This document shows positions 1,052-28,944 of a DNA stretch of 32,000 bases, piece after piece (position 1 is the first letter of the stretch; every line of letters begins with the position of its first letter). The notes under the pieces were generated by a model. It worked only from the letters and a program-made list of their open reading frames with translations, searched no databases and was not told the origin of the DNA. Both the position numbers and the translations under genes were made by a program. Location of the stretch: NCBI RefSeq assembly GCF_002075285.3, contig NZ_CP021983.2, positions 3,900,001-3,932,000 on the forward strand, given 5' to 3'. Source of the DNA: Halomicronema hongdechloris C2206 (GTDB taxonomy: Bacteria; Cyanobacteriota; Cyanobacteriia; Phormidesmidales; Phormidesmidaceae).

Positions 1052-1867
1052 TTGGTCTGGATCACCCCTGTGCCCACTGCTGCCACTACCCCGCAATCGC
1101 CGGATACCCCCCGCCATCCCATCTTCGACAGCCCCTGGTTTCGATGGCTAGAAGCCAGCTTAGGGACTGTGTCCCCAATGGGGAATGCCCCTATCCTCCG
1201 GTCCCAACACTTTCCCTGGGTGCCGCCCCTGGAGGCCAACTGGCAGCTGATTCGCCAGGAGCTAGAACAGGTATTGCGGCAAGTCGAGGCCCTGCCCAAT
1301 TTTCAGGACATCATGCCGCGGCAGCAGCGCATTAGCCCTGACAGTGGCTGGAAGACTTACTACTTCTGCGCCTTCGGCTTCGTCGCCCGGCACAACTGCC
1401 AACAATGCCCCCAGACCTGGAAACTACTGCAGCAGATTCCGGGGCTGCAGGTGGCCTTTTTCTCGATTCTGGCCCCCGGCAAACACATCCCTGAACACCG
1501 AGGCAAACACAAGGGACTGATTCGCTATCACCTGGGCCTGATCGTGCCCCAGCCGGCAACCGCCTGTCGGATTCGGGTCGGGAATCAGATCACCCACTGG
1601 CAAGAGGGCCAGAGCCTGATCTTTGACGATACCTACTACCACGAGGTCTGGAACGATACGGACGGCTACCGGGTGGTGCTATTTCTCGATATTGCTCGCC
1701 CCTTGCCGCTGCCCCTATCCTGGCTGAACTGGTTGATCTCCCGGCTGTTGAGCTTCTCGCCTCTGGTGAAGCAGGCCAAGGCCAACCATCACCACTGGGA
1801 ACAGCAGTTTGCCAAGGTCTCAGCTCAACCCACTCAGCAGCCTGAAGATGCCCTGGGGCAGCGGTAA
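1052..1867 (+). CDS. Aspartyl/asparaginyl beta-hydroxylase family 2OG-Fe(II) oxygenase (AspH/LpxO-like)
   Basis: 271-aa ORF. The core PEHRGKHKGLIRYHLGLIVP ... WQEGQSLIFDDTYYHEVWN matches the cupin metal-binding core of the AspH/LpxO family. The track start is TTG at 1052 and the true start is uncertain; there is an in-frame ATG at 1178. Confidence 0.7.
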   Translation: MVWITPVPTAATTPQSPDTPRHPIFDSPWFRWLEASLGTVSPMGNAPILRSQHFPWVPPLEANWQLIRQELEQVLRQVEALPNFQDIMPRQQRISPDSGWKTYYFCAFGFVARHNCQQCPQTWKLLQQIPGLQVAFFSILAPGKHIPEHRGKHKGLIRYHLGLIVPQPATACRIRVGNQITHWQEGQSLIFDDTYYHEVWNDTDGYRVVLFLDIARPLPLPLSWLNWLISRLLSFSPLVKQAKANHHHWEQQFAKVSAQPTQQPEDALGQR

Positions 1868-2721: not shown

Positions 2722-3203
2722 CGGGTCACCTCCACCAAGGGCGTGACGGGTTCGTACCACATGCCGCCGAAGGAGCGCTGATGTCGCAGCCGCCAGACTT
2801 GCACTTGCACCTGCTGCAGACAGACGGTCTCGGCCACATCGGCCATGGTCTGGTGGGCATAGTAGATGCCGCTGGCATCGGGCTGTAGCGAGGCCTCTAA
2901 AACTTGAGCCGCCAGGGCCTGCAGGCGGTGGAGATCTGGGAAGGTTCGCAGGCGCACCAGCTCTTGCTGACTAACCAGATCGGCGGGGGGCGCTAGCTCT
3001 ACCTGCAAGGGCTTACCATCGCAATCGGTAGCCAGCACCTGTAACAATCGCCGTTCGTCTCGATCGACGGAGGCAAACATGCCGAATCCGCCCCCATGCC
3101 AAGCACTCAGGCCCTGGGTCTGGGACAACACCAGTTGCCGCCCAGCGACGGCGATCAGCAACAGCGGCACGGCCCATTGATAGAGAAAATTACGGTAATC
3201 CAT
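2718..3203 (-). CDS. Hypothetical membrane-anchored protein (single N-terminal TM)
   Basis: 161-aa ORF with an ATG at 3201-3203. N-terminal hydrophobic helix WAVPLLLIAVAG, followed by WHGGGFGMFASVDRDERR. It overlaps the stop of the upstream MFS gene by 14 nt and the start of the downstream gene by 4 nt, which indicates an operon. I recognise no family. Confidence 0.5.
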   Translation of the reverse strand: MDYRNFLYQWAVPLLLIAVAGRQLVLSQTQGLSAWHGGGFGMFASVDRDERRLLQVLATDCDGKPLQVELAPPADLVSQQELVRLRTFPDLHRLQALAAQVLEASLQPDASGIYYAHQTMADVAETVCLQQVQVQVWRLRHQRSFGGMWYEPVTPLVEVTR

Positions 3204-3538
3204 GACGATGTAACTTCCAGTAGCCGATTAACCAGTACAAGCTGCTGATGGTGGCGGCGATGCCGGCAGCCACGTAGAAGACACTGACACCGCCTACTTT
3301 CCATAGCGGACCAAATAGAACGGGGGAGACAAATTGGCCTAAGGAGGCGGCGCCGGTGCCAATGGCCAGGATGCCAGCCCGTTGATGCCGGGGGGAGCGA
3401 TCGGCCAGGGCATTGTAAAAGTTGGGCATGACTAAGCCGAAGCCGAGGCCAAAGCCGAGGGCTGCCAGGAGAATCAGCGGCGGTTGCTGGAGGTGGGGAA
3501 TGGAGCCCAGGGACAGGGCCATGAGTAAGAATCCGGTT

Positions 3539-3546
3539 GCGATCGC
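3539..3546. repeat. HIP1 palindrome GCGATCGC
   Basis: Exact octamer read in the sequence, inside the MFS gene. Confidence 0.95.
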
Positions 3547-3977
3547 AGCGCCGCGACCGATGCGATGGGCCAGGCGATGGGCCCCTATCGCCGAGATGAT
3601 GGCGGCACCGATGGCTCGGCAGGCCAGTACTATGCCATTAAACATGGAACTGGCGCCAATGGCCGCCTTGAGATAGAGAGGCGCATAGACCACCACCACA
3701 TAAAACAGGGCCGAGGCTACCCCTAGGGCCACCAACAAAGCGGCGATGCGGCGCTGCCGCAACACCCTGCCGACCCCCTGGGTTTGGCTCAGGTCGACGG
3801 GGTTAGCCGTCGGGGTGACCGTGGCTGGCACCACCAGCCAGGCTGCCAGGGCCACCGGGATACCGAGGCCGTAGAGGCAAAAGGCCCAACGCCAGCCATA
3901 CAGCCCCAGCCAGCCCCCCAGGATGGGAAAAATCACCGTGGCCATAGACAGCACACTGGCAGCGTAGCCCATGAGAC

Positions 3978-3985
3978 GCGATCGC
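3978..3985. repeat. HIP1 palindrome GCGATCGC
   Basis: Exact octamer read in the sequence, inside the MFS gene. Confidence 0.95.
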
Positions 3986-4663
3986 ACCTCACTGGCATAG
4001 AGAGTACTGAGCAGACCAATGCCCCCCGCCGCGATGCCACCGCCAGCGGCCCCAGCCAGGGCCCGACAGCAGAGCATGGCCCAAAATCCCTGACTCAGCC
4101 CCCCCAGGCTGCCGAACAGGCCATAGGCCACTAGGGACCCCACTAAAGATTCGCCCGCCCCCGATGCGATTCGCCAAGAGTCCCAGGGTGGGACTGGCCA
4201 AGGCTAGCGTCAGGGTATGGGCACTGACCAACAGGCCAGCCCACTGAGAGTCCACCTGAAATTGGTCAATGACCTCTGGAAAAACCGGGGCCACAATCGT
4301 CCCCGTCGCACTCGATAATCCCCCCGCCAGTAATAACACCAGCAGAACCGGCCATTGCCGCCACCAATCGAGAACCGTAGAGACCTGGCTAGAGGACGCT
4401 ACCGACCTAACACCAGGCTTAGGCAGCGAATCAAGGGAATCAGGCACAGAGACTATCCGAGTTAAAACCGTAACCTGGAGGCACACCCCCCCTCGACATT
4501 TCCTTACTGTATTTCAAAAGGAAATAAATGTTAATATTTTCCATGAAATTAGATGAATATCTCGCAGAAATCGGTTTGCTATTGCGGCAACCGCATTGAA
4601 ACGGGGACACAGGTAAGCTGACACCGCTGTAGGCGACAACAGTATCGCTGTCAAGAGTCCATG

Positions 4664-4716
4664 TCAGAGTCAGAGGTCACTATTCAGAGAGTCACAGAAA
4701 GTCACTATTCAGAGAG
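4664..4716. repeat. Short direct-repeat array (iteron-like) in the divergent intergenic region
   Basis: The exact 16-nt repeat GTCACTATTCAGAGAG occurs at 4676-4691 and 4701-4716, a 25-nt period. TCAGAG occurs 4 times (4664, 4670, 4684, 4709). GTCAC occurs 3 times. Confidence 0.85.
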
Positions 4717-5432
4717 GGATAGCCCTTGCGTCCTAATTTAACCCAGGCATCTCAGCGATATCAGCGTGGCCCATGGCTAGCCGTCGCGCTTAAGTCTACT
4801 ACGCCGTGTATAGCAGATTACATGCCCCGATGGCTGGCATTAGCCCCTTGAGGCAGCTATGGATCCACCCTCCCATTTCCCTTGGCGCTCTGGCCCCTAG
4901 CCTACGGCAGGTAGGCTAATGCCATGGATTCAGCCGTAGGGGATGTTGCCGGTTGAGATTGCCATGATTGACTGGTTTAGTTCCCGGCATTTAATGGCTA
5001 CAGTCGCCGCGGCAGGGCAATGTTAGCCGCTTACGTATCCGGAGAATAGCGGCTCACCCTCCGTAACAAAAGCGCCTTATGCCACGGGTGCATCTACCCT
5101 AGAGCCAGAACTCTGCCCTTGGATTTGGAAAGAACATAGCCTCTTGAAAGTCAATGCAGGTATTATCGCAATGCGGTGTGTGATTCGTCGGTGATTCGAA
5201 TTGAGGGAGTCGATGGTTTTGAGTCATGGTCTGAGAGGATGTTGGCGGGAAGTGCATCTCGATGGCAGTAGCAAACGCATTGCCGCGGCAATGGTGCCAT
5301 GTATTCTCCCTAGGGCGCTGGGCGCCAAGCCTGGTGCTGCGATAGGACCGGTTGAAACCCCCTCTGGATCTAGGGTCGTTTCTCGTCTGGCTGGTGAATT
5401 ACGTCTCGATGTGTGAATGAGAGGAGTGGATT

Positions 5433-6719
5433 GTGGACGTCGTTAATGACTATGTACAGCACCTTCAGGCCAGTGGCTCTTATCCTGATAAGTTCATCTG
5501 CCATCGTAAGCAGGGCAACTTGGTCGAGATCGAAGAGGCCTCTACGGGTAAGTATCGTAAGGTTTTAACGTTTTGCACCAACGATGTGCTGGGCTTGGCT
5601 CAAGCCGACTCGGTCAAACAGGCTGCCATTGATGCCATTAGTCACTATGGCACCTCCAATAGTTCTTGTTCGGTGCTGAGTGGTCGCATCGATTTGCACC
5701 GACAACTGGAGACCGAGATTTCTGCCTTTAAGCATTTGCCCCATACCCATCTCTTTCTCAATGCTTGGATGGCTCTTCAGGCCTTGATGGATGGCTTTTG
5801 TCACTTGGCCATGCCAGTGCCCGGGTTTGAGCACACGCGAGAAACTCTGATCTTCACCGATGTGCTCAACCATGGCTGCATTATTTCGGCAGTGATGAAT
5901 GCCAGTAATCGCTCGGGCAAAATGTTTAACCATGGCCCTAAGGTCCGGGTGAAGGCCTACCGCCATTGTGATATGGATGATTTGGCCCGTAAATTGCGCC
6001 ACTATGTTCGCCCCAACGACCGCATCATGGTAATCTCCGATGCGGTATTTTCAATGGATGGGGACATAGTGCCCTTGCCTCGCATGCTAGACGTGTTGGC
6101 AGAGTATCCTGGCAGTGTGGTGGTGATGGATGAGGCCCATGCCAGTGGTGCCATTGGTCCCAAAGGGAAAGGCATCTACGACCATTTTGGGATCTCGCCC
6201 CAGTCGGTGCTGCAGCAGGGTATGGTGCCGATCATCATGACCACCTTCTCTAAGTTTGCCGGCTCTGCCGGAGCCGCCATTAGCGCCCCTAACCGAGAGC
6301 TGATCGATCTGCTGGATGTCTCCCCCACCTCCATCGGCACCATCTCGCTGCCACCCCCAGTGACGGCGGCGGCCCTAGAGAGCATTCGCCAGGTGCGCCG
6401 CCATCCAGAAATGGTCGAGCAATTACAGACCAATACTCGCTATTTGCGATCGCAACTGAGCCAAGCCGGCTTCGATGCCATTGGTGAGACCAACGTGATT
6501 CCGGTGATCTTGCCCCCTGAGTTAAGCCCTAAGGCCTTCGCCCGTTGCCTGATGGAAGAGCATGGGCTCTGGGTCTCCGCCATTTGGTTCATCGCCAAGC
6601 CACGCCTACGCATCACTGCCAATGCCCTCCATACCCAAACTGAGATGGATAGCCTCGTGGCGGCCATGGTGGCTGTCCGGGAAAAACTATCCGGGTCGGT
6701 GGTGCAGTACACTGCCTGA
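5433..6719 (+). CDS. PLP-dependent alpha-oxoamine synthase family enzyme (BioF/Kbl/Spt family; serine-palmitoyltransferase-like context)
   Basis: 428-aa ORF with a GTG start at 5433, 6 nt after a GAGGAG RBS (5421-5426). Family motifs present: NDVLGL, VLNHGCI, SDAVFSMDGD, MDEAHASGAIGPKGKG, and the PLP-lysine context TTFSKFAGSAGA. Confidence 0.85.
   Translation: MDVVNDYVQHLQASGSYPDKFICHRKQGNLVEIEEASTGKYRKVLTFCTNDVLGLAQADSVKQAAIDAISHYGTSNSSCSVLSGRIDLHRQLETEISAFKHLPHTHLFLNAWMALQALMDGFCHLAMPVPGFEHTRETLIFTDVLNHGCIISAVMNASNRSGKMFNHGPKVRVKAYRHCDMDDLARKLRHYVRPNDRIMVISDAVFSMDGDIVPLPRMLDVLAEYPGSVVVMDEAHASGAIGPKGKGIYDHFGISPQSVLQQGMVPIIMTTFSKFAGSAGAAISAPNRELIDLLDVSPTSIGTISLPPPVTAAALESIRQVRRHPEMVEQLQTNTRYLRSQLSQAGFDAIGETNVIPVILPPELSPKAFARCLMEEHGLWVSAIWFIAKPRLRITANALHTQTEMDSLVAAMVAVREKLSGSVVQYTA
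6446..6453. repeat. HIP1 palindrome GCGATCGC
   Basis: Exact octamer read in the sequence, inside the alpha-oxoamine synthase gene. Confidence 0.95.
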
Positions 6720-6757
6720 GGGAGGTCTGTTGGTACTCGCCCCTCCATCCTTGTGCT

Positions 6758-7891
6758 ATGACAACATCCCTAGCCCTCGAGATCCGACCCGTCACCACCC
6801 CCGCCGAGCAACAGGCATTTTTAGCGGTGCCTGGCCGGGTCTACCAAGGCGACAAGAATTGGGTGCCTCCCCTGGAGAGCACGGTAGCCAAGTTATTCGC
6901 TGCCGATAATCCCTTTCTTAGCTATGGCAAGTTCCAAGCCTTCGTCGCCTTCGCAGACCAGCAACCCGTCGGGCGAGTCGTGGCGGCCGTCAATCAGCGG
7001 CTGCTCGAGCGGGAAGGCCAGCCCATCGGCCTGTTTGGCTTCTTTGAGTCTGTCCCCCAACTTGCCGTCGCCGAGGCCCAGCTAACGGCTGCCGAGCACT
7101 GGTTGCGGCAGCAGGGCATGGAGCGGATACGAGGCCCCATCGACCTGTCTACCCACAACAACTGCTTCTTTCTCATCGATGGGTTCACCAGCCCCCCCAT
7201 GGTGATGATGCCTTACAATCCCCCCTACTACCCCGACTTCCTGGTCCAACTGGGTTGGGCCCAGGCCAAAGACGCCTATGCCTACGAATTATCCCTAGAT
7301 CGGCCGCTGCCTGAGAAATTTGAACGAGCTCACCACATCGCCCAGCAAGCCGGCATCACCTTTCGGCCCCTACGCACTCGCGGTGACGCCTTCCAGCAAG
7401 ACGTCCAAGACCTCTACCAGCTATTCACAAAAGCCTTCGCCAACAACTGGAGCTCCACGGCGCGCACCGAAGCAGAGTTTATGGCCGAGGCCCAGGAACT
7501 GCAGTCTCTGGTCGATCCAGACGTATTTATCATCGCCGAAGATCAGGGCACCATGATTGGGTTCCTGATGGGGCTACCCGATTACAACATTCCCTTAAAG
7601 CATGTCAATGGCAAACTGAATTGGCTGGGTCTGCTCAAATTTCTCTGGTATCGCCGTTACATTAACCAGGGACGCGTGATTGCCATCTGCAGCCTGCCCG
7701 ACTATCGTCGCCAGATGGTGCCCCTGGCCCTGGTCTATCTAGCCAGGCGCGGTGGCCTGCGAAAGCGGACGCCCTACCAGCGGGCCGAGTTGTCCTGGGT
7801 CTATGAAGACAATTGGCCTTCCCGCAAGATCATTGAAGCCGCCGGGGCCACTATTGCCAAGACCTATCGCATCTACGAAAAGGCCCTATGA
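6758..7891 (+). CDS. Large GNAT-fold N-acyltransferase, function unknown (candidate amine N-acyltransferase)
   Basis: 377-aa ORF, 38 nt downstream of the synthase. The C-terminal lobe has a GNAT-like motif-A region (VIAICSLPDYRRQMVPLALVYL) and the ending SWVYEDNWPSRKIIEAAGA...YRIYEK. The N-terminal lobe (NWVPPLES..., GLFGFFES, PYNPPYY) matches a widespread ~380-aa uncharacterised acyltransferase family as I recall it. Confidence 0.6.
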   Translation: MTTSLALEIRPVTTPAEQQAFLAVPGRVYQGDKNWVPPLESTVAKLFAADNPFLSYGKFQAFVAFADQQPVGRVVAAVNQRLLEREGQPIGLFGFFESVPQLAVAEAQLTAAEHWLRQQGMERIRGPIDLSTHNNCFFLIDGFTSPPMVMMPYNPPYYPDFLVQLGWAQAKDAYAYELSLDRPLPEKFERAHHIAQQAGITFRPLRTRGDAFQQDVQDLYQLFTKAFANNWSSTARTEAEFMAEAQELQSLVDPDVFIIAEDQGTMIGFLMGLPDYNIPLKHVNGKLNWLGLLKFLWYRRYINQGRVIAICSLPDYRRQMVPLALVYLARRGGLRKRTPYQRAELSWVYEDNWPSRKIIEAAGATIAKTYRIYEKAL

Positions 7892-8853
7892 ATGCCCTCG
7901 TCACTGGAGCCAGCGGCTTTACCGGCTCTCATCTAGTCAGGGCTTTAGAGCAGCAAGGCAATCAGGTGAGAGCCCTAGTGCGGCCCACCAGCGATCTCTC
8001 ACGGTTGGCCCCCACTTCGGCGGAGTTGGTGTATGGCGACATCACCGATGAGGCTGCCTTGAGGCAGGCCATGTCGGGGGTTGACATGGTCTTCCACATC
8101 GCCGCCTATGTCGATTTGGGCCTGGTCAACGAAGCCGAAATGCAGCGGGTCAACGTGGACGGCACCCAGGCGGTGCTGTCGACGATGCGAACTGTAGCGG
8201 CCCAGAGAGCCAGTCCCCCCCGCCTAGTCTACTGCAGCACCATCGGTGTCTATGGCGATACCCAAGGACAGGTGGTGGATGAAACCTTCCAGCGCACCCA
8301 AGCAGGCTTTTCCTCGGCCTACGATCGCACCAAATACCAAGCGCAGCAATTGGTCGATCAAGCCGCCACCGAGCTACCCGTGGTCAGCCTGATGCCAGCC
8401 GGCATCTTGGGACCAGATGACCCCCACTTTGGCCCAGTCATAACCCTATTTCTCAGGCAACGGTTGAAACTGTGGCCTGGGGGCCAGCGCGTCACCGGCA
8501 TAGTCCATGTCGACGATCTAGTGCAAGCATTAATCTTAGCGGCAGAGCGAGGAACACCAGGAGCCCATTACATTATTTCGGCCGGGGAGCTCTCCACCCG
8601 AGAGATGTTCGAGATCCTCAGCCAACTCACCGGGATTCCCGTGCCGGCAGAACCTCCCCAGGGGATAATCAGAGCCCTGGGCAGCTTGCTCGATCCACTA
8701 GGCCGTTGGTGGGGCTGGAACCCACCCCTCAGTCGGGAACGGGTGCACTACATCTATGATCGCTGCGTCCGAGTCAATGCCAGCAAGGCCCGGCAGGAAC
8801 TGGGTTGGCAGCCCCGGCCCGTGGCCGAGATCCTGAAGGACTTGGTAGAGTAA
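7888..8853 (+). CDS. NAD(P)-dependent epimerase/dehydratase-type extended SDR (candidate ketoreductase)
   Basis: 321-aa ORF. Rossmann motif VTGASGFTGSHL at the N-terminus and catalytic YxxxK (YDRTK). Its ATG (7888-7890) overlaps the TGA (7889-7891) of the GNAT gene as ATGA. Confidence 0.85.
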   Translation: MNALVTGASGFTGSHLVRALEQQGNQVRALVRPTSDLSRLAPTSAELVYGDITDEAALRQAMSGVDMVFHIAAYVDLGLVNEAEMQRVNVDGTQAVLSTMRTVAAQRASPPRLVYCSTIGVYGDTQGQVVDETFQRTQAGFSSAYDRTKYQAQQLVDQAATELPVVSLMPAGILGPDDPHFGPVITLFLRQRLKLWPGGQRVTGIVHVDDLVQALILAAERGTPGAHYIISAGELSTREMFEILSQLTGIPVPAEPPQGIIRALGSLLDPLGRWWGWNPPLSRERVHYIYDRCVRVNASKARQELGWQPRPVAEILKDLVE

Positions 8854-18352: not shown

Positions 18353-18812
18353 ATTAAAGTCCATCTACGCCAGATCTGCTTGACAAATAGAGCGAAATAA
18401 GTCTGTTATGTTGAGCCATAGCGAAGGAGAACGATACACTAGAGCCATTTACCCAATACGGTGGCGCCGATTGGGCTGTTTGTACTTTAAAGATTCTCAT
18501 CTTGGTGCGCTCGGCCAGTTCCCTGCCCCCGTCTATCCCGTGACAAACTAACCCTGTGCTAAGTCAAAAAGCTAGATTTTCCAAAGATAAATCTCCCGAT
18601 TACCCAGTGCTGAACTAACTCCCCTCTAAATGCGATGGTCAAATATTGGCCCAAGCGGGCCATCGCCTCCCATATCCGAGCTGCTCCCGCCAGCTACCCA
18701 TCAACACCCAAACGCTAGGAATCAAGAGTCCGTACCCACTTGATTCCCTGCCATTAGCCAATGCGCGTGAACACAATTGATTACTCAGGGCCTTACCTGC
18801 TTGAGGAGACGC

Positions 18813-21800
18813 ATGACTGATCAGACTTATACCCCAGCCACCTTTGTTTTGCCCGATCTCGTTGAAATCCAGCGTTCCAGCTTCCGCTGGTTTCTAGAAG
18901 AAGGGTTGATCGAAGAACTTGAAAGTTTCTCCCCTATTACTGACTATACCGGTAAACTTGAGCTCCACTTCCTGGGTAAAGATTACCAACTCAAGAGCCC
19001 CAAGTATGCCGTTGACGAGGCCAAACGGCGAGACGCCACCTACGCCGTTCAGATGTATGTCCCCACCCGACTGATCAATAAAGAGACTGGGGAAATTAAG
19101 GAGCAGGAAGTCTTTATCGGCGATTTGCCCCTGATGACCGATCGCGGCACCTTCATTATCAATGGAGCCGAACGGGTCATTGTGAATCAAATTGTTCGTA
19201 GCCCAGGAGTTTACTACAAGGCTGAGACCGATAAAAACGGTCGTCGCACCTACAATGCCAACCTCATTCCCAATAGAGGAGCCTGGCTTAAATTTGAGAC
19301 CGACAAAAATGACTTAGTCTGGGTCCGTATTGATAAGACCCGCAAGTTATCAGCCCAAGTCCTCCTGAAGGCCCTAGGGCTATCGGATAACGAGATCTTC
19401 GATCAGCTACGCCATCCAGAGTACTTTCAAAAGACCATCGAGAAAGAAGGCCAGTTCAGTGAAGAAGAAGCCCTGCTAGAGCTGTACCGTAAACTGCGGC
19501 CGGGGGAACCTCCCACCGTCTCTGGCGGACAGCAACTGTTAGAGTCTCGATTCTTTGAACCCAAGCGCTACGACCTGGGGCGGGTCGGCCGCTACAAAAT
19601 CAATCGCAAGCTACACTTGAGCGTTCCCGATACTGTACGGGTCCTCACCCCCCAAGATATCCTGGCAGCCATCGATTATCTCATCAATTTAGAGTTCGAT
19701 ATTGGTAGTATCGACGACATTGATCACCTCGGTAACCGCCGCGTCCGGTCGGTCGGTGAATTACTTCAGAATCAGGTGCGGGTAGGTCTCAACCGTTTAG
19801 AGCGGATCATCCGGGAGCGCATGACAGTGTCTGACGCCGACTCCCTCACCCCCGCTTCTCTGGTCAATCCGAAGCCATTGGTCGCCGCCATCAAAGAATT
19901 CTTCGGCTCCAGCCAGCTATCCCAGTTCATGGACCAAACCAATCCCCTAGCTGAGTTGACTCACAAGCGTCGTCTCAGTGCCCTAGGTCCAGGGGGCTTA
20001 ACCCGAGAACGGGCAGGGTTTGCCGTGCGCGATATTCACCCGTCCCACTACGGTCGTATTTGCCCTATTGAGACCCCAGAAGGCCCCAATGCCGGCTTGA
20101 TCGGCTCCCTAGCCACCCATGCTCGAGTGAATGAATTCGGCTTCATTGAGACCCCCTTCCACAAAGTCGACAATGGCCGAGTCCGTAAAGATCTACCTCC
20201 CATCTACATGACAGCTGATGAGGAAGATGATCTACGGGTAGCTCCAGGGGACATTCCCACGGATGAAGCCGGCTATATTTTGGGCGATATCCCAGTACCT
20301 GTCCGCTATCGACAAGATTTCACCACGACGACTCCCGACGAAGTCGACTATGTGGCCGTCTCCCCTGTACAAATCATCTCCGTGGCCACTTCTTTGATCC
20401 CATTTATCGAACATGACGATGCTAACCGTGCCCTGATGGGCTCAAACATGCAGCGTCAAGCGGTGCCATTGCTAAAGCCTGAGCGTCCCTTGGTTGGTAC
20501 TGGTTTAGAGGCTCAAGCCGCTCGAGATTCAGGCATGGTCATCGTTAGCCTTACGGATGGTGAAGTGACCCACGTTGACGCCAATCAAATCCGTATTCGA
20601 GATGCTGAAGGCATCGAACATAAATACGTTCTCCAGAAATATCAACGGTCCAACCAAGATACCTGTCTGAATCAGCGCCCTCTTGTTTTCCATGGGGACC
20701 CGATCAAAGCCGGCCAAGTCATTGCCGATGGCTCTGCCACTGAGGGGGGGGAGATTGCCTTAGGGCAAAATATTCTAGTAGCCTATATGCCCTGGGAAGG
20801 CTATAACTACGAAGATGCCATCCTCATCAGCGAACGGCTGGTGTATGACGACGTTTACACGTCTATTCACATCGAGAAGTATGAAATTGAGGCGCGACAG
20901 ACCAAATTAGGCCCAGAGGAAATCACTCGAGAAATTCCCAACGTCGGTGAAGACTCTCTACGTCAGCTGGATGAAACCGGTATTATTCGCATCGGTGCCT
21001 GGGTAGAGGCCGGAGATATTCTCGTCGGCAAAGTAACTCCCAAGGGAGAATCTGACCAGCCCCCAGAAGAAAAGTTACTACGAGCTATTTTCGGAGAGAA
21101 GGCTCGCGATGTGCGAGATAACTCATTACGGGTACCCAACGGTGAAAAAGGTCGCGTGGTAGATGTTCGCGTGTTTACCCGTGAACAGGGTGATGAACTT
21201 CCTCCCGGGGCCAACATGGTCGTGCGAGTCTATGTTGCCCAAAAACGCAAGATCCAGGTGGGTGACAAAATGGCTGGTCGCCATGGCAACAAAGGGATTA
21301 TTTCCCGAATCCTGCCGGTTGAGGATATGCCCTACCTGCCCGATGGCACACCTATTGATATCGCCCTTAACCCCCTAGGGGTTCCTTCCAGGATGAACGT
21401 GGGTCAGGTATTCGAGTGTCTTCTAGGTTGGGCTGCAGAAAACCTGAATGCCCGTTTCAAAATCACGCCATTCGACGAAATGTATGGTGGAGAGGCATCT
21501 CGTAACAGTACCCACAACAAACTCCAGGAAGCTCGCGACACCAAAGCTCAAGATTGGGTCTTCAACCCCGAAGATCCCGGCAAGATTCAACTCTATGACG
21601 GGCGTACCGGGGAACCCTTCGATCGCCCTGTTACAGTTGGTAAGGCCTACATGCTGAAGCTGGTGCACTTGGTGGACGACAAGATCCACGCCCGTTCCAC
21701 AGGCCCTTATTCCTTAGTGACTCAGCAGCCCTTGGGTGGTAAGGCCCAGCAAGGTGGTCAGCGCTTTGGTGAGATGGAGGTGTGGGCTCTAGAAGCCTTT

Positions 21801-22115
21801 GGTGCTGCCTATACTCTGCAAGAGCTCCTAACGGTCAAATCGGATGATATGCAAGGGCGCAATGAGGCTCTCAATGCCATCGTCAAAGGCAAAGCCATCC
21901 CCAGACCTGGTACTCCCGAGTCTTTCAAGGTGCTGATGCGGGAACTACAATCCCTCTGCCTAGATGTGGCCGTGCATAAAGTAGAAACCCGTGAGGATGG
22001 TACCAGCCGAGATGTTGAAGTTGACCTAATGGCAGACGTCAGTAATCGCCGTACCCCCTCCCGTCCAACCTATGAGTCCATTACCCGGGAAGAACTAGAA
22101 GGGATTGAAGAATAG
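18813..22115 (+). CDS. rpoB: DNA-directed RNA polymerase subunit beta
   Basis: I trimmed the track ORF (18777) to the ATG at 18813, which follows a GAGGAG RBS at 18803-18808 ([11 protein letters not shown]...). Motifs [39 protein letters not shown] and [14 protein letters not shown]. About 1100 aa. Confidence 0.97.
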
Positions 22116-22226
22116 TTACTCTGCCAGGCACTAGAGGTCATACTCTGCCTATGTTGGCTCTGAGTAAACTGGCCACTAGTGCCTCCGTCCCCCATTCACT
22201 ATTTGCGTAGAAGGAAGTCAGTCAGC

Positions 22227-24143
22227 ATGCCTAAGCTCGAACAGCGGTTTGATTACGTCAAAATTGGCCTTGCTTCTCCCGAACGAATTCGCCAATGGGG
22301 CGAGCGCACTCTTCCCAATGGCATGGTAGTGGGAGAGGTGACCAAGCCGGAAACCATTAATTACCGAACTCTCAAGCCTGAGATGGATGGCTTGTTCTGT
22401 GAACGGATCTTCGGGCCAGCAAAAGACTGGGAGTGCCACTGTGGCAAATACAAGCGGGTTCGACACCGAGGCATCGTGTGTGAGCGATGTGGTGTAGAAG
22501 TTACTGAATCTCGGGTACGCCGTCATCGCATGGGCTACATCAAATTAGCTGCTCCCGTAGCTCACGTTTGGTATTTGAAAGGGATTCCTAGCTACATTGC
22601 CATCTTGCTGGATATGCCCTTGCGAGACGTTGAGCAGATCGTCTACTTCAACGCCTATGTCGTCCTAGATGCTGGTAATGCTGAAAATCTGACCTACAAG
22701 CAACTGCTGACCGAAGATCAGTGGATTGAGATTGAAGATCAGCTCTACGATGAAGAGTCCCAACTGATCGGCGTCGAAGTTGGCATTGGAGCAGAAGCCC
22801 TGCAACAGCTCCTACAGGATCTTGACTTAGAAGCAGATGCAGAGAACCTACGAGAGGAAATTGCTAACTCCAAAGGGCAAAAGCGGGCCAAATTAATTAA
22901 GCGACTGCGGGTCATCGATAACTTCATCGCTACTGGGGCAAAACCCGAATGTATGGTGCTAGATATCATCCCAGTGATTCCGCCTGATTTGCGACCGATG
23001 GTGCAGTTGGATGGAGGTCGGTTTGCAACTTCTGACCTGAATGATCTCTATCGTCGGGTGATTAATCGCAATAACCGTCTGGCCAGGTTACAAGAGATTT
23101 TGGCCCCTGAGATTATTGTCCGCAATGAGAAGCGTATGCTTCAGGAAGCTGTTGATGCCCTCATCGACAATGGTCGCCGTGGCCGTACTGTAGTCGGAGC
23201 TAACAACCGACCATTAAAATCCTTGTCAGACATCATTGAAGGTAAGCAAGGACGATTTCGGCAGAATTTGCTAGGTAAACGAGTGGACTATTCTGGGCGC
23301 TCGGTGATTGTGGTAGGTCCCAAGCTGAAAATTCATCAGTGTGGTCTGCCCCGGGAGATGGCCATTGAATTATTTCAACCATTCGTGATTCACCGCCTGA
23401 TTCGGCAGGGCCTAGTCAATAATATCAAGGCAGCTAAGAAGCTAATTCAGCGCAATGATCCTAGTGTCTGGGATGTGCTGGAAGAAGTGATTGAAAGTCA
23501 TCCGGTACTTCTAAACCGCGCTCCTACCCTACACCGCCTAGGTATTCAAGCCTTTGAGCCCATCTTAGTTGAAGGTCGAGCCATTCAACTCCATCCTCTA
23601 GTCTGTCCTGCCTTTAACGCAGACTTTGATGGTGACCAGATGGCAGTGCATGTGCCACTATCCCTGGAAGCTCAGTCAGAGGCGCGACTGCTTATGCTGG
23701 CATCTAACAATGTGCTGTCTCCAGCAACGGGAACACCTATTATTACCCCTAGCCAAGATATGGTCCTGGGATGTTACTACCTGACAGCAAATACTCCCTA
23801 TGACCAAAAAGGTGATGAGCGTTACTTTGCCAGTATGGAAGACGCCATTTTGGCCTTCGAACATGGGCTCGTCGATCTACACGCCAAAGTTTGGTTGCGG
23901 TACGACGGTCCTGTGGAGTCAGATAATTCGAATGACAAGGTCCTCGAAGAAATCAAAGCCGACGACGGTACCATCACTAAGATCTATAAGCTGCGCCGGA
24001 TACGAGAAGACGCCGAAGGGAGCGTGATATCGCAGTACATCAAAACCACGCCGGGACGGCATCATCTACAACAAAACCGTTCAAGATGCCTTAGTGAGCT
24101 AGGCAAATATGGCAAGGCGGTCATGCCAGCAATCACAGGCTGA
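22227..24143 (+). CDS. rpoC1: DNA-directed RNA polymerase subunit gamma (N-terminal half of beta-prime); 3' end apparently frameshifted
   Basis: Likely start is ATG at 22227 ([24 protein letters not shown]). Zn finger [23 protein letters not shown] and catalytic [12 protein letters not shown] are present. After TTPGR (ends 24059) the given frame reads [10 protein letters not shown]... to a TGA at 24141-24143. The +1 frame from 24061 reads [13 protein letters not shown] and stops at 24100-24102. That +1 reading is the conserved continuation and would give a ~624-aa product. Confidence 0.93.
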
Positions 24144-24178
24144 TTATGCAGTTACTGAATGAAGGGCGGAGAGACGCA

Positions 24179-27100
24179 ATGGCAGAGCAAGGGGCTAATC
24201 AATCGGCAGCTAAGCTGTTTAGAAATCGCACCATTGACAAGAAGCAACTCAAGAAGCTAATTTCTTGGTCATTTGCTAATTTTGGAACTGCTCGTACAGC
24301 ACAGATGGCAGATCTGATTAAGGATCTAGGCTTTCGCTACGCTACCCGAGCAGGTGTATCCATCAGCGTAGAAGATTTACAGGTACCACCAAGTAAACGC
24401 CAGCTTCTAGAGTCGGCAGAAGAAGATATTCGCATTACTGAAGAACGCTATACCCGTGGCGAAATCACCGAAGTAGAGCGTTTTCAGAAAGTCATTGACA
24501 CCTGGAATAGCACTAGTGAAGAGTTGAAGGATCAAGTGGTCAGCAATTTCAAGACCAATAATCCTTTAAACTCAGTCTACATGATGGCCTTTTCGGGGGC
24601 TCGTGGCAATATCTCTCAGGTGCGTCAGCTGGTTGGGATGCGGGGACTGATGGCTAATCCTCAAGGAGCCATTATTGACCTACCCATCAAAACCAATTTC
24701 CGAGAAGGCTTGACTGTAACGGAATACGTAATTTCCTCGTATGGTGCTCGTAAAGGGTTGGTCGATACAGCCCTACGGACAGCTGACTCTGGTTACCTCA
24801 CTCGCCGCTTAGTGGATGTGTCCCAAGATGTCATTATCCGTGAGGCTGATTGCGGCACGGAGCGAGGGATTCCCCTACGCAGTATGACCGATGGTGAACG
24901 GGTCTTAATTCCTCTAGAAGATCGGCTATTGGGTAGGGTGCTCGCCCAGGATGTGAAGCACCCCGAAACAGGAGATATCATTGCCCACCGCAACCAAGGC
25001 CTATCGACCGATATGGCCAAGCTGATCTCTAAAGCTGGTGTGGACGAGGTTATAGTACGTTCTGCCTTGACCTGTGAGGCGTCTCGCTCTGTATGCCAGA
25101 AATGCTATGGCTGGAGCTTGGCCCATTCGGAGATGGTTGACCTCGGGGAAGCCGTGGGAATTATTGCGGCCCAGTCCATCGGTGAACCAGGAACCCAGCT
25201 GACGATGCGGACGTTCCACACGGGCGGAACCTTCACAGGCGAAATGGCTCCTCAGATTCGCGCTCGCCTCGATGGAACCCTGCAGTTGCCCAAGCGCTTT
25301 CGGAGTCGGACGTTTCGCACTCGCCATGGTGATGATGCCATGGTAATTGAAGCGAACGCTGAACTCACTATTCAGGGAGACGGGAGTAGCCAAACAGAGG
25401 CCTTAGCCCAGGGTTCCATTCTCTTTGTCAAGCCAGGAGAGACAGTTAAAAAAGGGGATCTCGTAGCAGAGATGCCAAGCACAGGTCGGGTCCGCAAGGT
25501 CACAGAAAAGGCCACTAAGGACGTGACTACAGACCTATCTGGGGAGGTCAAGTTCGCTGGTCTAATCCAAGAGGAAAAGACAGATCGTCAGGGCAACATG
25601 ACTCGTTTAGCCCAACGGGGTGGATTGCTCTGGGTATTGTCAGGTGAGGTGTATAACTTGCCACCAGGGGCAGAGCCCGTCGTCAAAAATAGTGACCATG
25701 TAGAAGCCGACGGTATTTTGGCGGAAACCAGGCTGATAAGTGAGCGTGGTGGGCTAGTACGTTTGCCCCAGGAGGCTGAAGGCAATACCGTCCGAGAAGT
25801 AGAAATTATTACGGCTTCGGTGCTGTTGAATCAGGCTGCTGTCAGGATAGAAAGTGGTCAGGGGCGAGAGCATTATGTCCTTGAAACGGCCAATAATCAG
25901 CAATTTTCTCTCATTGCCACCCCAGGGACTAAGGTGACTAACAACCAGGTGGTAGCTGAGTTAGTGGATGAACGCTACCGCACCCCGACAGGCGGTATCC
26001 TTAAGTATTCCGGAGTTGAGGTCGCTAAGAAGGGGAAAGCTAAGCAGGGTTATGAGGTCGTTAAGGGAGGTACCCTGCTATGGATTCCGGAAGAGGCCCA
26101 TGAGGTCAATAAGGATATTTCTCTGCTGCTGGTTGAGGACGGCCAGTATGTTGAGGCAGGTACTGAAGTCGTAAAAGACATTTTCTGTCAGAGCAATGGG
26201 GTCGTTGAGGTTGTTCAGAAAAATGACATCCTACGAGAAGTCCTGATTAAGCCTGGAGATCTGCATATGACAGATGTCTCTGAGGACCTAATGGACAAGG
26301 AAGCTACTCTAGTACCTCCTGGAGAGCAATTGACCCCGGAATTGACCATTGAGGACCTGCGTTATGTCGAATATGTTGAAACTCCTGAAGGGCCTGCTCT
26401 GTTACTACGTCCAGTAATTGAGTTCACCATACCTGATGACCCCGATGTACCTAGTCAAGAGTCGGTGAATGATGCGGGGGGTGAGATTCGCCTGCGTGCC
26501 ATTCAGCGGATTCCTTATAAGGACGGAGAACGGGTGAAGTCGGTTGAGGGGCTGGAACTACTGCGTACTCAGTTACTACTGGAGATTGAACATGATGGAC
26601 CCCAGCTGGCTGCTGATATCGAATTAGTCCCGGATGAGTCTGATGCAGACATCATGCGGTTACAGATGGTGATCTTGGAAACATTGATCGTTCGTCGTGA
26701 TGTAATTGCAGATCAGACTCAGGGGGCTACCTTGACTCGTCTCCTAGTCAAGGATGGTCAACAAATTGAACCTGGTGCCGTTGTTGCTCGTACTGAAATC
26801 CAGTGTAAAGAAGCAGGTGAAGTTCGAGGAATCCGAGAAGGAGCTGAGGCGATTCGTCGGGTCTTGGTAGTACGGGATACTGACCAGTTTACCGTGGACT
26901 TGGCCGGCAAATCTCCCAATGTAGCTGTCGATGATTTAGTCGTCGCTGGTAGCGAAGTTGCCGATGGTATTCGCCTGGAGGAGTCGGGCCAGATTACGCG
27001 CTTGGAAGGAAATACCTTGACCATACGGATTGCTCGCCCCTATCGGGTATCGACAGGAGCTGTTTTACACATTGATGATGGTGATCTGGTCCAACGGGGT

Positions 27101-28153
27101 GACAACCTAGTGCTCTTGGTCTTCGAGCGGGCTAAGACCGGTGATATTATCCAAGGCTTGCCTCGAATTGAGGAACTCTTGGAAGCCCGTAAACCCAAAG
27201 AAGCCTGTGTGTTAGCTGAGCGATCTGGCACAGCTCAAGTGGTGTACGGAGATGATGAGACCGCTGAAATTAAAGTAATCGAAGATGATGGGGTGGTCAC
27301 AGAGTATCCCGTTAGCCCTGGTCAAAACCTGTTGGTGTCGGATGGGCAATATGTGCAGACAGCTGAGCCGTTAACGGATGGCCCAGCTAATCCTCACCAA
27401 ATTTTGGAGGTCTTCTTCCGTTTTTATCAAAGTCAGGGTCGAGGAATTCATGAAGCGGCTATGATGAGCCTGCAGAGTGTCCAAACGTTCCTGGTCAACG
27501 AGGTACAGTCTGTGTATCAGTCCCAGGGAATTGATATCTCTGATAAGCACATCGAGGTGATTGTCCGCCAGATGACTTCTAAAGCTCGGGTTGACGATGG
27601 CGGCGATACCACCATGTTGCCCGGTGAGTTGATAGAAATTTATCAGGTGGAGCAGGTCAATGAGGCCATGGCGATTACGGGAGGGGCTCCCGCCCAGTAC
27701 ACGCCAGTATTGCTAGGGATTACGAAAGCCTCCCTGAATACGGACAGCTTTATCTCAGCGGCTAGTTTTCAGGAGACCACTCGAGTGCTGACGGAGGCTG
27801 CCATTGAGGGTAAGTCAGACTGGCTGCGCGGATTGAAGGAAAATGTCATTATTGGCCGCTTGATTCCGGCTGGTACCGGCTTCAACGCCTATGAAGAGGT
27901 GATGGCAACTGATATTGACACCGCTTTTGAATCGGCGTTGCTAGACGATGATATGCCCCTTCATGACATGGTGCTGGATGATCGCACAGCTCGCACCTAT
28001 GAGCTGGAAGGGAACTTGGGAGTGCTCTCCGATGATGACATGGTTGTCGGTAATGATACGGACTCAGATACTCAGCGTCGAGCTGGGAATGGGTCAGGAA
28101 TTGCCCATGATGATGATCTGCTCATTGATGATCAGACAGAGGCTCCTGAGTAA
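24179..28153 (+). CDS. rpoC2: DNA-directed RNA polymerase subunit beta-prime (C-terminal half, cyanobacterial RpoC2)
   Basis: Likely start is ATG at 24179 (MAEQGANQ...), 5 nt after GGAGAG. The track start at 24146 is also possible. Motifs [41 protein letters not shown] (trigger loop) and [14 protein letters not shown]. There is a large insertion between the trigger-loop halves and an acidic C-terminal tail. Confidence 0.97.
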
Positions 28154-28405: not shown

Positions 28406-28930
28406 TTAGGCGACGAACTGACAGCGTTCGAACCGCAACATCATAGCGTCGAGGAGGGCGGCATCACCGAAGCCAAAATCACGACGGACGCCAAAACCAC
28501 CGGCTATCCAGGACTGCTGCCAAGGGAGTTGCCAGTACCATAGGGCGGGCAGATGACCAGGTGGTGCCTCTAGGTCGAAGGTTAGCCGGGAGTAGGGTTT
28601 ACAAAAGGCCAGGGGCGACTTATCAGAGAGGAGCCAGCCGATAGTGTGGCTGAAACGCAGGGCTTTGGGGGAAATGGCATGGCGATAAATCTGATGTTGC
28701 ACTGAGAAGCCAAACTGACCACCGCTGTACTGGGTCCAGAGATAATCGAGTTGATGCAGTAGGTGGCAAGGCAGATGGGCAACTGCAGCGGTATCTAGCC
28801 AGCCTTCCTGGACTCGATTAGCAGCTTGTAGAAGGACATCGCAGGTGGCTTGGTCGGCAGCCTGCCAAGCGGATTGGGCTAACAGTTGGGTCAGATCTTC
28901 GTAACTCCAATCGAGGGTAACAGCTTGCAT
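28406..28930 (-). CDS. GUN4-domain protein (core domain only)
   Basis: 174-aa ORF. Motifs WQAADQAT, LPCHLLHQLDYLW, GGQFGFSVQHQIY and FDLEAPPGHLP match the GUN4 porphyrin-binding domain. It is a clear paralogue of the C-terminus of the upstream gene. Confidence 0.8.
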   Translation of the reverse strand: MQAVTLDWSYEDLTQLLAQSAWQAADQATCDVLLQAANRVQEGWLDTAAVAHLPCHLLHQLDYLWTQYSGGQFGFSVQHQIYRHAISPKALRFSHTIGWLLSDKSPLAFCKPYSRLTFDLEAPPGHLPALWYWQLPWQQSWIAGGFGVRRDFGFGDAALLDAMMLRFERCQFVA

Positions 28931-28944
28931 GGGCAGTGTTAGGC

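Follow-up and report, generated by a model that had tools for sequence, protein, structure and literature searches.

Results

A three-gene operon in Halomicronema hongdechloris

We analyzed a 32,000-nucleotide stretch of the genome of the cyanobacterium Halomicronema hongdechloris C2206 (the window), in which three intact genes lie closely packed on the forward strand (Table 1). They encode an α-oxoamine synthase (AOS; gene 1), an N-acyltransferase of the GNAT fold (gene 2) and an extended short-chain dehydrogenase/reductase (SDR; gene 3), and we favor the view that this trio makes a ceramide-like amino-lipid. The product of gene 2 matches XM38_037090 of strain C2206 at 100% identity, in keeping with this source, and gene 1 belongs to a 90%-identity cluster containing ASC72749.1 / WP_080809851.1. 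Gene 1 stops with TGA at 6717–6719, leaving 38 nt before gene 2; genes 2 and 3 share a stop/start overlap, ATGA, at 7888–7891, and gene 3 ends with TAA at 8851–8853. In Pfam, gene 1 matches Aminotran_1_2 (E = 3.6e-34), gene 2 weakly matches Acetyltransf_1, and gene 3 matches both Epimerase (E = 8e-38) and 3Beta_HSD.

A first-pass annotation, made from the sequence without database searches, had proposed that these genes might form a ceramide-type operon. Each sequence element that it described was recovered at the same coordinates: the open reading frames (ORFs), the gap of 38 nt, the stop/start overlap, the GAGGAG ribosome-binding site, and the motifs SMDGD, DEAHASG and TFSKF in gene 1 and TGASGFTG and YDRTK in gene 3. 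The last two motifs, together with the Epimerase match, confirm gene 3 as an extended SDR. It was also right that bioA, bioB and bioD, and a dedicated acyl carrier protein (ACP) or acyl-ACP synthetase gene, are missing: no bio, ACP or acyl-AMP ligase gene occurs anywhere in the 32-kb window.

Table 1. Features of the trio locus, and recurrent partner genes found at the corresponding loci of other cyanobacteria.
Feature	Position	Strand	Remarks
Gene 1, α-oxoamine synthase, pyridoxal phosphate (PLP)-dependent	5433–6719	+	428 aa; GTG start
Gene 2, tandem-GNAT N-acyltransferase	6758–7891	+	377 aa; ATG at 6758
Gene 3, extended SDR	7888–8853	+	321 aa; translationally coupled to gene 2
Ribosome-binding site GAGGAG	5421–5426	+	6 nt 5′ of the gene 1 GTG; read from sequence
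Gap without recognizable gene	4487–5432		946 nt; site of the Rieske gene in relatives
Divergent major facilitator superfamily (MFS) transporter	3190–4486	−	Two overlapping ORFs in different frames; change near 4146–4160
Two overlapping ORFs, 270 and 161 aa	1948–3203	−	Apparent operon with the MFS gene
OlsC/LpxO-like 2-oxoglutarate-dependent acyl 2-hydroxylase	1052–1867	+	271 aa; Asp/Arg-hydroxylase family
GH3 adenylating enzyme	Relatives		16 loci; translationally coupled to AOS in PCC 7424
Small FA_hydroxylase-family protein	Relatives		13 loci; recurrent partner, shuffled arrangements
ATP-binding cassette (ABC) ATPase and MacB/FtsX permease	Relatives		14 and 11 loci; recurrent partners

Gene 2 groups with bacterial ceramide synthases

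Homology assigns gene 2 to the bacterial ceramide synthase family (bCerS / CC_1154 / YghO). Its product aligns over the full length with Escherichia coli YghO (30% identity over 384 aa, E = 2e-54), and likewise with proteins from Roseomonas (33%), Sphingomonas (28%), Rubrobacter (34%) and Streptomyces (32%); a comparison with ceramide synthases, which the first-pass annotation had put forward as a check, thus came out in its favor. In PMC9386255, the yghO gene (ECD_02850) is paired with CC_1154, the gene that encodes the ceramide synthase of Caulobacter. Actinobacterial and proteobacterial members of the family are 31–36% identical to each other, and the values for gene 2 are slightly lower. 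A tblastn search of annotated plasmids returned full-length homologues, 28–35% identical, inside the sphingolipid clusters of Roseomonas, Sphingomonas, Diaphorobacter and E. coli.

Clustering at 50% identity divides this large family into 6,496 clusters. In a neighbor-joining tree, the cyanobacterial GNATs, the GNATs of comparable Streptomyces and Rubrobacter trios and several natural fusion proteins form a clade with a bootstrap of 100, which adjoins the clade of proteobacterial bCerS; GNATs of Tunicatimonas, Ensifer and Chloroflexota, which have no AOS gene nearby, fall outside it. The fusions in this clade, which are metagenomic, join an AOS to a GNAT (~780 aa) or a GNAT to a domain of the fatty-acyl-AMP-ligase type (940 aa), and provide Rosetta-stone evidence that these enzymes act together. 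The fusion proteins carry the identifiers P0149, P0168, P0179 and P0187 in our set.

Gene 2 had no match among the sequences of solved structures, even at E = 10, no match in NCBIfam and only generic GNAT domains in Pfam; among 85 relatives searched against NCBIfam, a few gave weak, generic GNAT matches. An AlphaFold model of moderate confidence (pLDDT 69.7) most resembles tandem-GNAT structures such as MshD, in agreement with the earlier description of gene 2 as a 377-aa GNAT-fold acyltransferase.

The trio is conserved among cyanobacteria

In one genome scan, the GNAT was encoded in at least 257 cyanobacterial species-representative genomes, and we analyzed 80 of these loci. H. hongdechloris itself lies outside the loci returned by the scan, the best of which encodes a match 71% identical. 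The AOS gene lies directly 5′ of the GNAT gene in 47 of the 75 evaluable loci, the SDR gene directly 3′ of it in 41 of 71, and all three fall within 8 kb of one another in 35 loci. AOS and SDR are usually found near the GNAT in cyanobacterial carriers, and the linkage of AOS, SDR and a Rieske oxygenase gene (see below) to the GNAT gene persists even where gene order has been shuffled. The arrangement is not due to chance, and this co-conservation across related cyanobacteria, one of the checks suggested at the outset, bears out the earlier proposal that the trio is a functional module.

Carriers of the cluster include Scytonema and related marine filamentous genera, as well as cultured strains such as Gloeothece PCC 7424 and PCC 7822, Synechococcus PCC 7335 and Leptolyngbya PCC 7375. 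Besides the trio, many loci encode enzymes of families that tailor lipids: OlsC-like hydroxylases (263–268 bits in NCBIfam), FA_hydroxylase proteins, GH3 enzymes resembling OlsH and a Rieske protein resembling SdmA. The GH3 protein has OlsH as its sole NCBIfam match, at 105 bits against a cutoff of 620. The GH3, FA_hydroxylase and ABC/FtsX genes are all absent from the window.

The fullest cluster that we saw is that of Gloeothece citriformis PCC 7424 (L099; CP001291.1, 3313818–3333083). Its order is FA_hydroxylase, Rieske, AOS, GH3, OlsC-like hydroxylase and MFS, followed ~0.8 kb past the MFS gene by GNAT-SDR. The FA_hydroxylase and MFS genes are on the opposite strand, and the GH3 gene overlaps the AOS stop codon.

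Gene 1 defines a separate clade of α-oxoamine synthases

The first-pass annotation judged gene 1 to be closer to serine palmitoyltransferase (SPT) than to a typical BioF. The second half of this judgment stands: gene 1 misses the NCBIfam equivalog cutoffs for BioF (TIGR00858; 231 bits, cutoff 426) and Kbl (207 bits, cutoff 460), and all of the reference AOS enzymes exceed 300 bits with the BioF model, compared with 231 for gene 1. Moreover, Gloeothece PCC 7424 carries both an orthologue of gene 1 (WP_015954979.1) and a separate BioF, WP_015956773.1, which is given as the BioF of G. citriformis in Table S10 of Belton et al. (PMC8895605). The first half does not stand, as gene 1 also fails all three SPT equivalog models (172, 153 and 113 bits; cutoffs 640, 500 and 670). 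In contrast, reference SPTs from Roseomonas (639 bits), E. coli (600 bits) and Sphingomonas (833 bits) pass SPT models, and even the AOS enzymes of the actinobacterial trios have an SPT model as their best NCBIfam match (377–444 bits). Against the CqsA-type model, gene 1 scores 86 bits (cutoff 428).

Gene 1 is 25–34% identical to BioF, Kbl, HemA, SPT and PigH alike; the Rubrobacter trio AOS is its second-best reference match (31%, 169 bits), and its match to the Sphingobacterium SPT has E = 2.3e-38. In a neighbor-joining tree of 31 AOS sequences, gene 1 forms a separate long branch, outside a clade (bootstrap 81) that unites proteobacterial SPTs, the AOS enzymes of actinobacterial trios and the AOS-GNAT fusions. 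Thus the AOS phylogeny that had been suggested as a check placed gene 1 apart from the AOS enzymes that are linked to a bCerS.

The catalytic His, Asp and His and the PLP lysine of gene 1 are all kept, and NHGC, DEAHA and TFSK align with the catalytic residues of the Sphingomonas SPT. Its extra length was first attributed to an N-terminus ~40 aa longer than usual; the alignment traces it instead to two internal insertions, of ~11 and 8–12 residues. The C-terminal active-site loop is four residues short (WFIAKP-RLRI, compared with R-PP-x-x-P in BioF and SPT), and two motifs are altered, NDYLG to NDVLG and GSR to SCS. The insertions, the short loop and the two altered motifs are all invariant in the gene 1 clade. 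Orthologues, to which RefSeq gives only the name of a generic PLP enzyme, are 70–95% identical across cyanobacterial orders. Together with the intact catalytic residues, this conservation indicates strong purifying selection. We also considered whether the active site reveals the substrate, but the position equivalent to Arg378 varies among true and SPT-like enzymes too and is not diagnostic. By score and by tree, then, gene 1 is classed as neither BioF nor SPT, and is placed in a distinct, long-branched and highly conserved clade of cyanobacterial AOS enzymes.

Gene 3 is an extended SDR only distantly related to CerR

Gene 3 falls below the cutoff of every NCBIfam model it matches, the best being HpnA (TIGR03466; 201 bits, cutoff 367.65), SdmB (NF052578; 139 bits, cutoff 600) and OleD (99 bits, cutoff 580). 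HpnA, SdmB, OleD and 3β-hydroxysteroid dehydrogenases all act on lipids that bear a 3-keto or 3-hydroxy group. The closest reference is the SDR of the Streptomyces trio (31% identity over the full length, E = 2e-34, 119 bits), and the best solved structure is 3wj7 (E = 1.7e-45). The kinship with the bacterial ceramide reductase CerR claimed for gene 3 found little support: the SDRs of the Roseomonas, E. coli and Sphingomonas clusters match it at 52–62 bits but match one another at 87–144 bits, and the HpnA and SdmB models fit gene 3 better. HpnA is also the best or sole NCBIfam match of four of five reference cluster SDRs, the Roseomonas protein having none at the threshold. No hopanoid or sterol genes were found in the window or among the recurrent neighbors. 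The predicted protein begins MNALVTGASGFTG, running straight into the Rossmann motif, and its sequence has no signal peptide.

A lost Rieske gene and other neighbors

In 40 of 50 evaluable loci, a gene for a Rieske [2Fe-2S] oxygenase lies directly 5′ of the AOS gene on the same strand. The protein has 377 aa; its best NCBIfam match is SdmA (236 bits over the full length, cutoff 600), and its nearest solved structures are SxtT and SxtDIOX, tailoring enzymes of saxitoxin. At this position H. hongdechloris has a gap in which, as the first-pass annotation stated, there is no gene; what that description missed is that the gap occupies the site of the Rieske gene. A tblastn search found no Rieske remnant in the window, and the closest relative (95% AOS identity) likewise has no Rieske gene and a gap of 963 nt. 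Because the gene is present at this site in most relatives and no trace of it is left here, we conclude that the H. hongdechloris lineage has lost the Rieske gene and that the gap is the scar of this loss.

A hidden gene or conserved RNA in the gap is unlikely, since comparison with the 80 loci (blastn and tblastx) showed no conservation apart from the N-terminus of the MFS gene and the ribosome-binding site and start of gene 1, where 30–45 nt around the start are conserved in close relatives. There was no conserved ORF in the gap and no credible Rfam match in the gap or the whole window, and promoter scans of the gap, like terminator scans, gave signals no better than those of shuffled controls. 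The gap contains a single perfect 16-nt direct repeat, GTCACTATTCAGAGAG, in two copies 25 nt apart (4676–4716).

On the far side of the gap lies an MFS gene whose reading frame appears to be broken. The intact orthologue at locus L001 aligns with it as two pieces across the frame change, and the orthologue in the closest relative (metagenomic contig L096, 95%-related) is an intact protein of 418 aa. The frameshift may reflect a recent pseudogene or an assembly indel, and the gene may be inactive. Of the 80 loci, 31 have an MFS orthologue, in most cases transcribed divergently from the Rieske and AOS genes. The transporter is of the drug-efflux type, with matches to Bcr/CflA-like and bacillibactin-exporter-like proteins, and is a candidate exporter or flippase for the product of the trio. 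The two ORFs that follow the MFS gene adjoin it in the seven closest loci; they have no Pfam or NCBIfam match, and the 270-aa product contains hydrophobic segments.

The hydroxylase at the start of the window scores 263 bits against OlsC (cutoff 450) and 130 bits against LpxO. Homologues lie within the Gloeothece PCC 7424 cluster and near the clusters at L019, L028 and L035. It is a possible tailoring enzyme, with a weaker link to the trio. Like the Rieske site, this hydroxylase, the frameshifted MFS gene and the larger cluster of relatives had gone unnoticed in the first-pass annotation. The rest of the window is housekeeping, with genes for methionine aminopeptidase, phosphoketolase, HisD, Hsp33, TatD, RNA polymerase subunits and GUN4-like proteins. 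The polymerase genes rpoB, rpoC1 and rpoC2 (18777–28153) have the split arrangement typical of cyanobacteria, and the two GUN4-like genes (28406–30429) are on the minus strand.

Comparison with known systems

The ceramide pathway of Caulobacter consists of Spt (CC_1162), bCerS (CC_1154) and CerR (CC_1164), plus AcpR and AasR. The trio shares with it three enzyme superfamilies and the implied steps of condensation, N-acylation and keto reduction. It differs in that its AOS lies outside the SPT clade and its SDR is distant from CerR; thus, of the three-way likeness to this pathway first proposed, the bCerS assignment of gene 2 held, while Spt for gene 1 and a specific tie to CerR for gene 3 did not. 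Caulobacter CerR is a periplasmic protein, peripheral to the inner membrane (PMC11087976), whereas gene 3 would yield a product without a signal peptide. The dedicated ACP, acyl-ACP synthetase and LptF/G paralogues of Caulobacter-type loci are also absent from the trio, whose relatives have MFS and MacB/FtsX transporters and other tailoring oxygenases.

Our reference clusters, from Roseomonas, Sphingomonas parapaucimobilis, Diaphorobacter and E. coli (the yghO cluster), combine the same three enzyme classes with an ACP, an acyl-AMP ligase and LptF/G proteins. They are sound references, since their AOS enzymes pass the NCBIfam SPT cutoffs. For example, the Roseomonas marmotae cluster holds genes for an ACP, an AOS, a diacylglycerol-kinase-family protein, a CDP-alcohol phosphatidyltransferase and two LptF/G proteins, along with a GNAT, nucleotidyltransferases, a fatty acyl-AMP ligase and an epimerase-family SDR. 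A complete yghO cluster is found at L083 (E. coli, plasmid-labelled NZ_MG591698.1), with an AOS whose 600 bits suffice to pass the SPT model, an ACP, an SDR, a fatty acyl-AMP ligase and LptF/G paralogues, that is, the full ceramide-type set. Such a gene set has also been noted for E. coli BL21 (PMC9386255).

The closest match in layout comes from actinobacteria. Trios on a plasmid of Streptomyces sp. NBC_01001 and on plasmid 1 of Rubrobacter radiotolerans have the identical order AOS-GNAT-SDR, with overlapping stops and starts and a tight coupling like that of the cyanobacterial trio, and their GNATs share its bootstrap-100 clade. However, their AOS enzymes group with SPTs and the cyanobacterial AOS does not, and neither of the two loci showed a Rieske, GH3 or hydroxylase partner.

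Gene 1 must also be distinguished from the canonical cyanobacterial BioF, represented by Npun_R3567 (394 aa), which belongs to the same superfamily and is often confused with it in annotations. Npun_R3567 is 38.75% identical to the Sphingobacterium SPT (E = 7.6e-92) and is far more SPT-like than gene 1 is, so the two belong to different families. Belton et al. (2022, PMC8895605) showed that this 394-aa protein is the single AOS of Nostoc punctiforme and does not act as an SPT, and that sphingolipids are not made by this species. N. punctiforme thus evidently lacks an AOS of the gene 1 type.

Finally, two further lipid pathways share features with the extended cluster. The GH3 enzyme of relatives and the hydroxylase at the start of the window resemble OlsH and OlsC of ornithine-lipid metabolism, both below cutoff (105 of 620 and 263 of 450 bits), and no OlsI, OlsA or OlsB genes were seen with the cluster. 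OlsH, a GH3 protein, is a recently described lyso-ornithine-lipid synthetase that uses ATP and free fatty acid to form N-acyl ornithine, and for both OlsH and OlsC the family activity concerns amide-linked amino-lipids (PMC12493201). No ornithine lipids have been found so far in cyanobacteria (PMC12971839). The SdmA/SdmB pair, which demethylates sterols at C-4, aligns with the full length of the Rieske protein of relatives and of gene 3, respectively, at scores far below the cutoff of 600 and without sterol or hopanoid genes in the context of the trio. This resemblance probably reflects shared chemistry, oxidation next to a 3-hydroxy or 3-keto lipid carbon, rather than orthology.

Discussion

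A probable pathway to a ceramide-like amino-lipid

The reading that we favor, and regard as reasonably probable, is that the trio encodes a three-step pathway to a ceramide-like, N-acylated long-chain amino alcohol. The integrity of the three genes, their homologies, their synteny, the fusions and the conservation of the module are direct observations on which it is built. In the first step, the AOS would condense an amino acid, not necessarily serine, with a fatty acyl thioester, giving a long-chain α-amino ketone and CO2. As the locus encodes neither a dedicated ACP nor a ligase, acyl-ACP drawn from fatty acid synthesis is the probable donor of the acyl group. The tandem GNAT of the bCerS family would then acylate the amine of the amino ketone, and the SDR would reduce the 3-keto group last; this order, acylation before reduction, matches the one proposed for Caulobacter. 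We infer these substrates and the order of steps, and equally the chain length, localization and product.

Most relatives have a larger module, with the Rieske oxygenase, the FA_hydroxylase-family and OlsC-like hydroxylases, an ATP-dependent acyl-amide synthetase of the GH3 type, the MFS protein and the MacB/FtsX exporter. The accessory hydroxylases and exporters suggest a hydroxylated, exported lipid of the cell envelope. H. hongdechloris retains the core trio but no longer has the Rieske gene, and its MFS gene is possibly inactive. A broader claim, that the clusters represent a widespread new class of amino-lipid, ceramide-like, built by a new clade of AOS on a substrate that may not be serine, hydroxylated by the Rieske, OlsC-like and FA_hydroxylase enzymes, and exported, is more tentative, and we would place it somewhat short of an even chance.

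Several observations weigh against the favored reading. Gene 1 stands outside the SPT clade, about equally far from BioF, Kbl, HemA and SPT, and neither its amino-acid substrate nor the length of its acyl chain can be read from the sequence. The trees are simple neighbor-joining trees with few references and one long branch. The relationship of gene 3 to proteobacterial CerR is weak and generic. Of 66 loci that could be fully evaluated, only 17 have the contiguous trio of the window, and the window has no ACP or acyl-AMP ligase gene. GNATs at ≤27% identity occur in unrelated contexts, so that the family is not functionally uniform; for gene 2 the context is an adjoining, co-conserved AOS and SDR, although that AOS is not an Spt by score or by tree. 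Finally, N. punctiforme makes no sphingolipids, even if it evidently lacks the gene 1-type AOS.

Alternative readings

A strict, serine-derived ceramide ranks below the favored reading, and we think it unlikely. Here gene 1 would be an SPT that forms 3-ketodihydrosphingosine, and the product an ordinary (dihydro)ceramide. Membership of gene 2 in the bCerS family and an operon layout like that of the actinobacterial trios both fit this idea. So does TFSK, which is common to all bCerS-linked AOS enzymes aligned, BioF, Kbl and HemA having T-[FL]-[GS]-K variants. There are also reports of ceramides in Scytonema julianum and in Moorea producens (PMC8895605), and Scytonema carries the cluster. Nonetheless, the scores of gene 1 against the SPT models are far from those of true SPTs and even of actinobacterial trio enzymes, the tree sets it outside the SPT-like clade, and conserved positions are altered (NDVLG, SCS and the shortened WFIAKP loop).

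More doubtful still is a secreted signal or specialized metabolite, in which an N-acylated amino ketone or amino alcohol of small or medium chain length would be exported by the MFS protein and no membrane lipid formed. The conserved drug-efflux-type transporter divergently upstream is what one would expect of such a pathway; AOS enzymes also make quorum signals, the saxitoxin enzymes are the nearest structural relatives of the Rieske protein, and a condensation-domain protein follows the Streptomyces trio. But the CqsA-type score of gene 1 is far under the cutoff, the accessory genes resemble those for hydroxylases of membrane lipids (OlsC, FA_hydroxylase) and for an exporter of the MacB/FtsX type, and the wide spread across orders and high conservation better suit a lipid of core physiology.

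A hopanoid-type triterpenoid as the substrate of the SDR and Rieske enzymes, by analogy with SdmA/SdmB and HpnA, with the AOS and GNAT modifying an amino side chain, is very improbable. Although HpnA and SdmB are the best models for the SDR and SdmA is the best for the Rieske protein, with full-length alignment to the Sdm models, none of the scores comes near its cutoff (367, 600 and 600), there is no squalene-hopene cyclase or hpn gene in the window or among the recurrent neighbors, and the window retains the core trio although it has no Rieske gene. Moreover, HpnA is likewise the best or sole match of CerR-type SDRs from true sphingolipid clusters, which indicates that few models cover this branch of SDRs.

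The least credible proposal, that gene 1 encodes the housekeeping BioF, or else a Kbl partnered by a threonine dehydrogenase (Tdh) of the SDR type, and is clustered with the GNAT incidentally, takes its support from BioF and Kbl being the top-scoring NCBIfam matches of gene 1 and from the original GenBank name, 8-amino-7-oxononanoate synthase, and is largely refuted by scores of about half of both cutoffs, the generic RefSeq name, the lack of bio genes nearby, the separate BioF of Gloeothece PCC 7424, the conserved linkage of gene 1 to GNAT, Rieske and SDR genes and, for Kbl, the SDR itself, which scores 18 bits against the Tdh of Bacillus thuringiensis and does not match that of Ralstonia.

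Implications for cyanobacterial lipids

Cyanobacterial membranes are usually described by four glycerolipids, monogalactosyldiacylglycerol (MGDG), digalactosyldiacylglycerol (DGDG), sulfoquinovosyldiacylglycerol (SQDG) and phosphatidylglycerol (PG), and to our knowledge lipids of the sphingolipid type do not count as a trait of cyanobacteria. The one dedicated study, of Nostoc punctiforme, was negative for sphingolipids (PMC8895605). A literature search, whose scope left aside the supplementary tables of the primary bCerS paper (Stankeviciute et al., 2022), found no link between Spt, bCerS or CerR homologues, or this cluster, and cyanobacteria, and cyanobacteria go unmentioned in the available part of the supplements of Ding et al. 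(2024).

Conservation of the module across hundreds of cyanobacterial species points to an undescribed amino-lipid, and a ceramide-synthase-family module of this breadth would offer a genetic handle on the question of cyanobacterial sphingolipids. If the broader claim of a new class of amino-lipid is true, sphingolipid-type chemistry would be common in filamentous, mat-forming and soil-crust cyanobacteria, with the genes in at least 257 species. The module would also define a new subfamily of AOS enzymes and extend the reach of the bCerS family, and it might account for the isolated findings of ceramides in Scytonema and Moorea. Its lipid products might serve as new biomarkers of microbial mats and of soil crusts.

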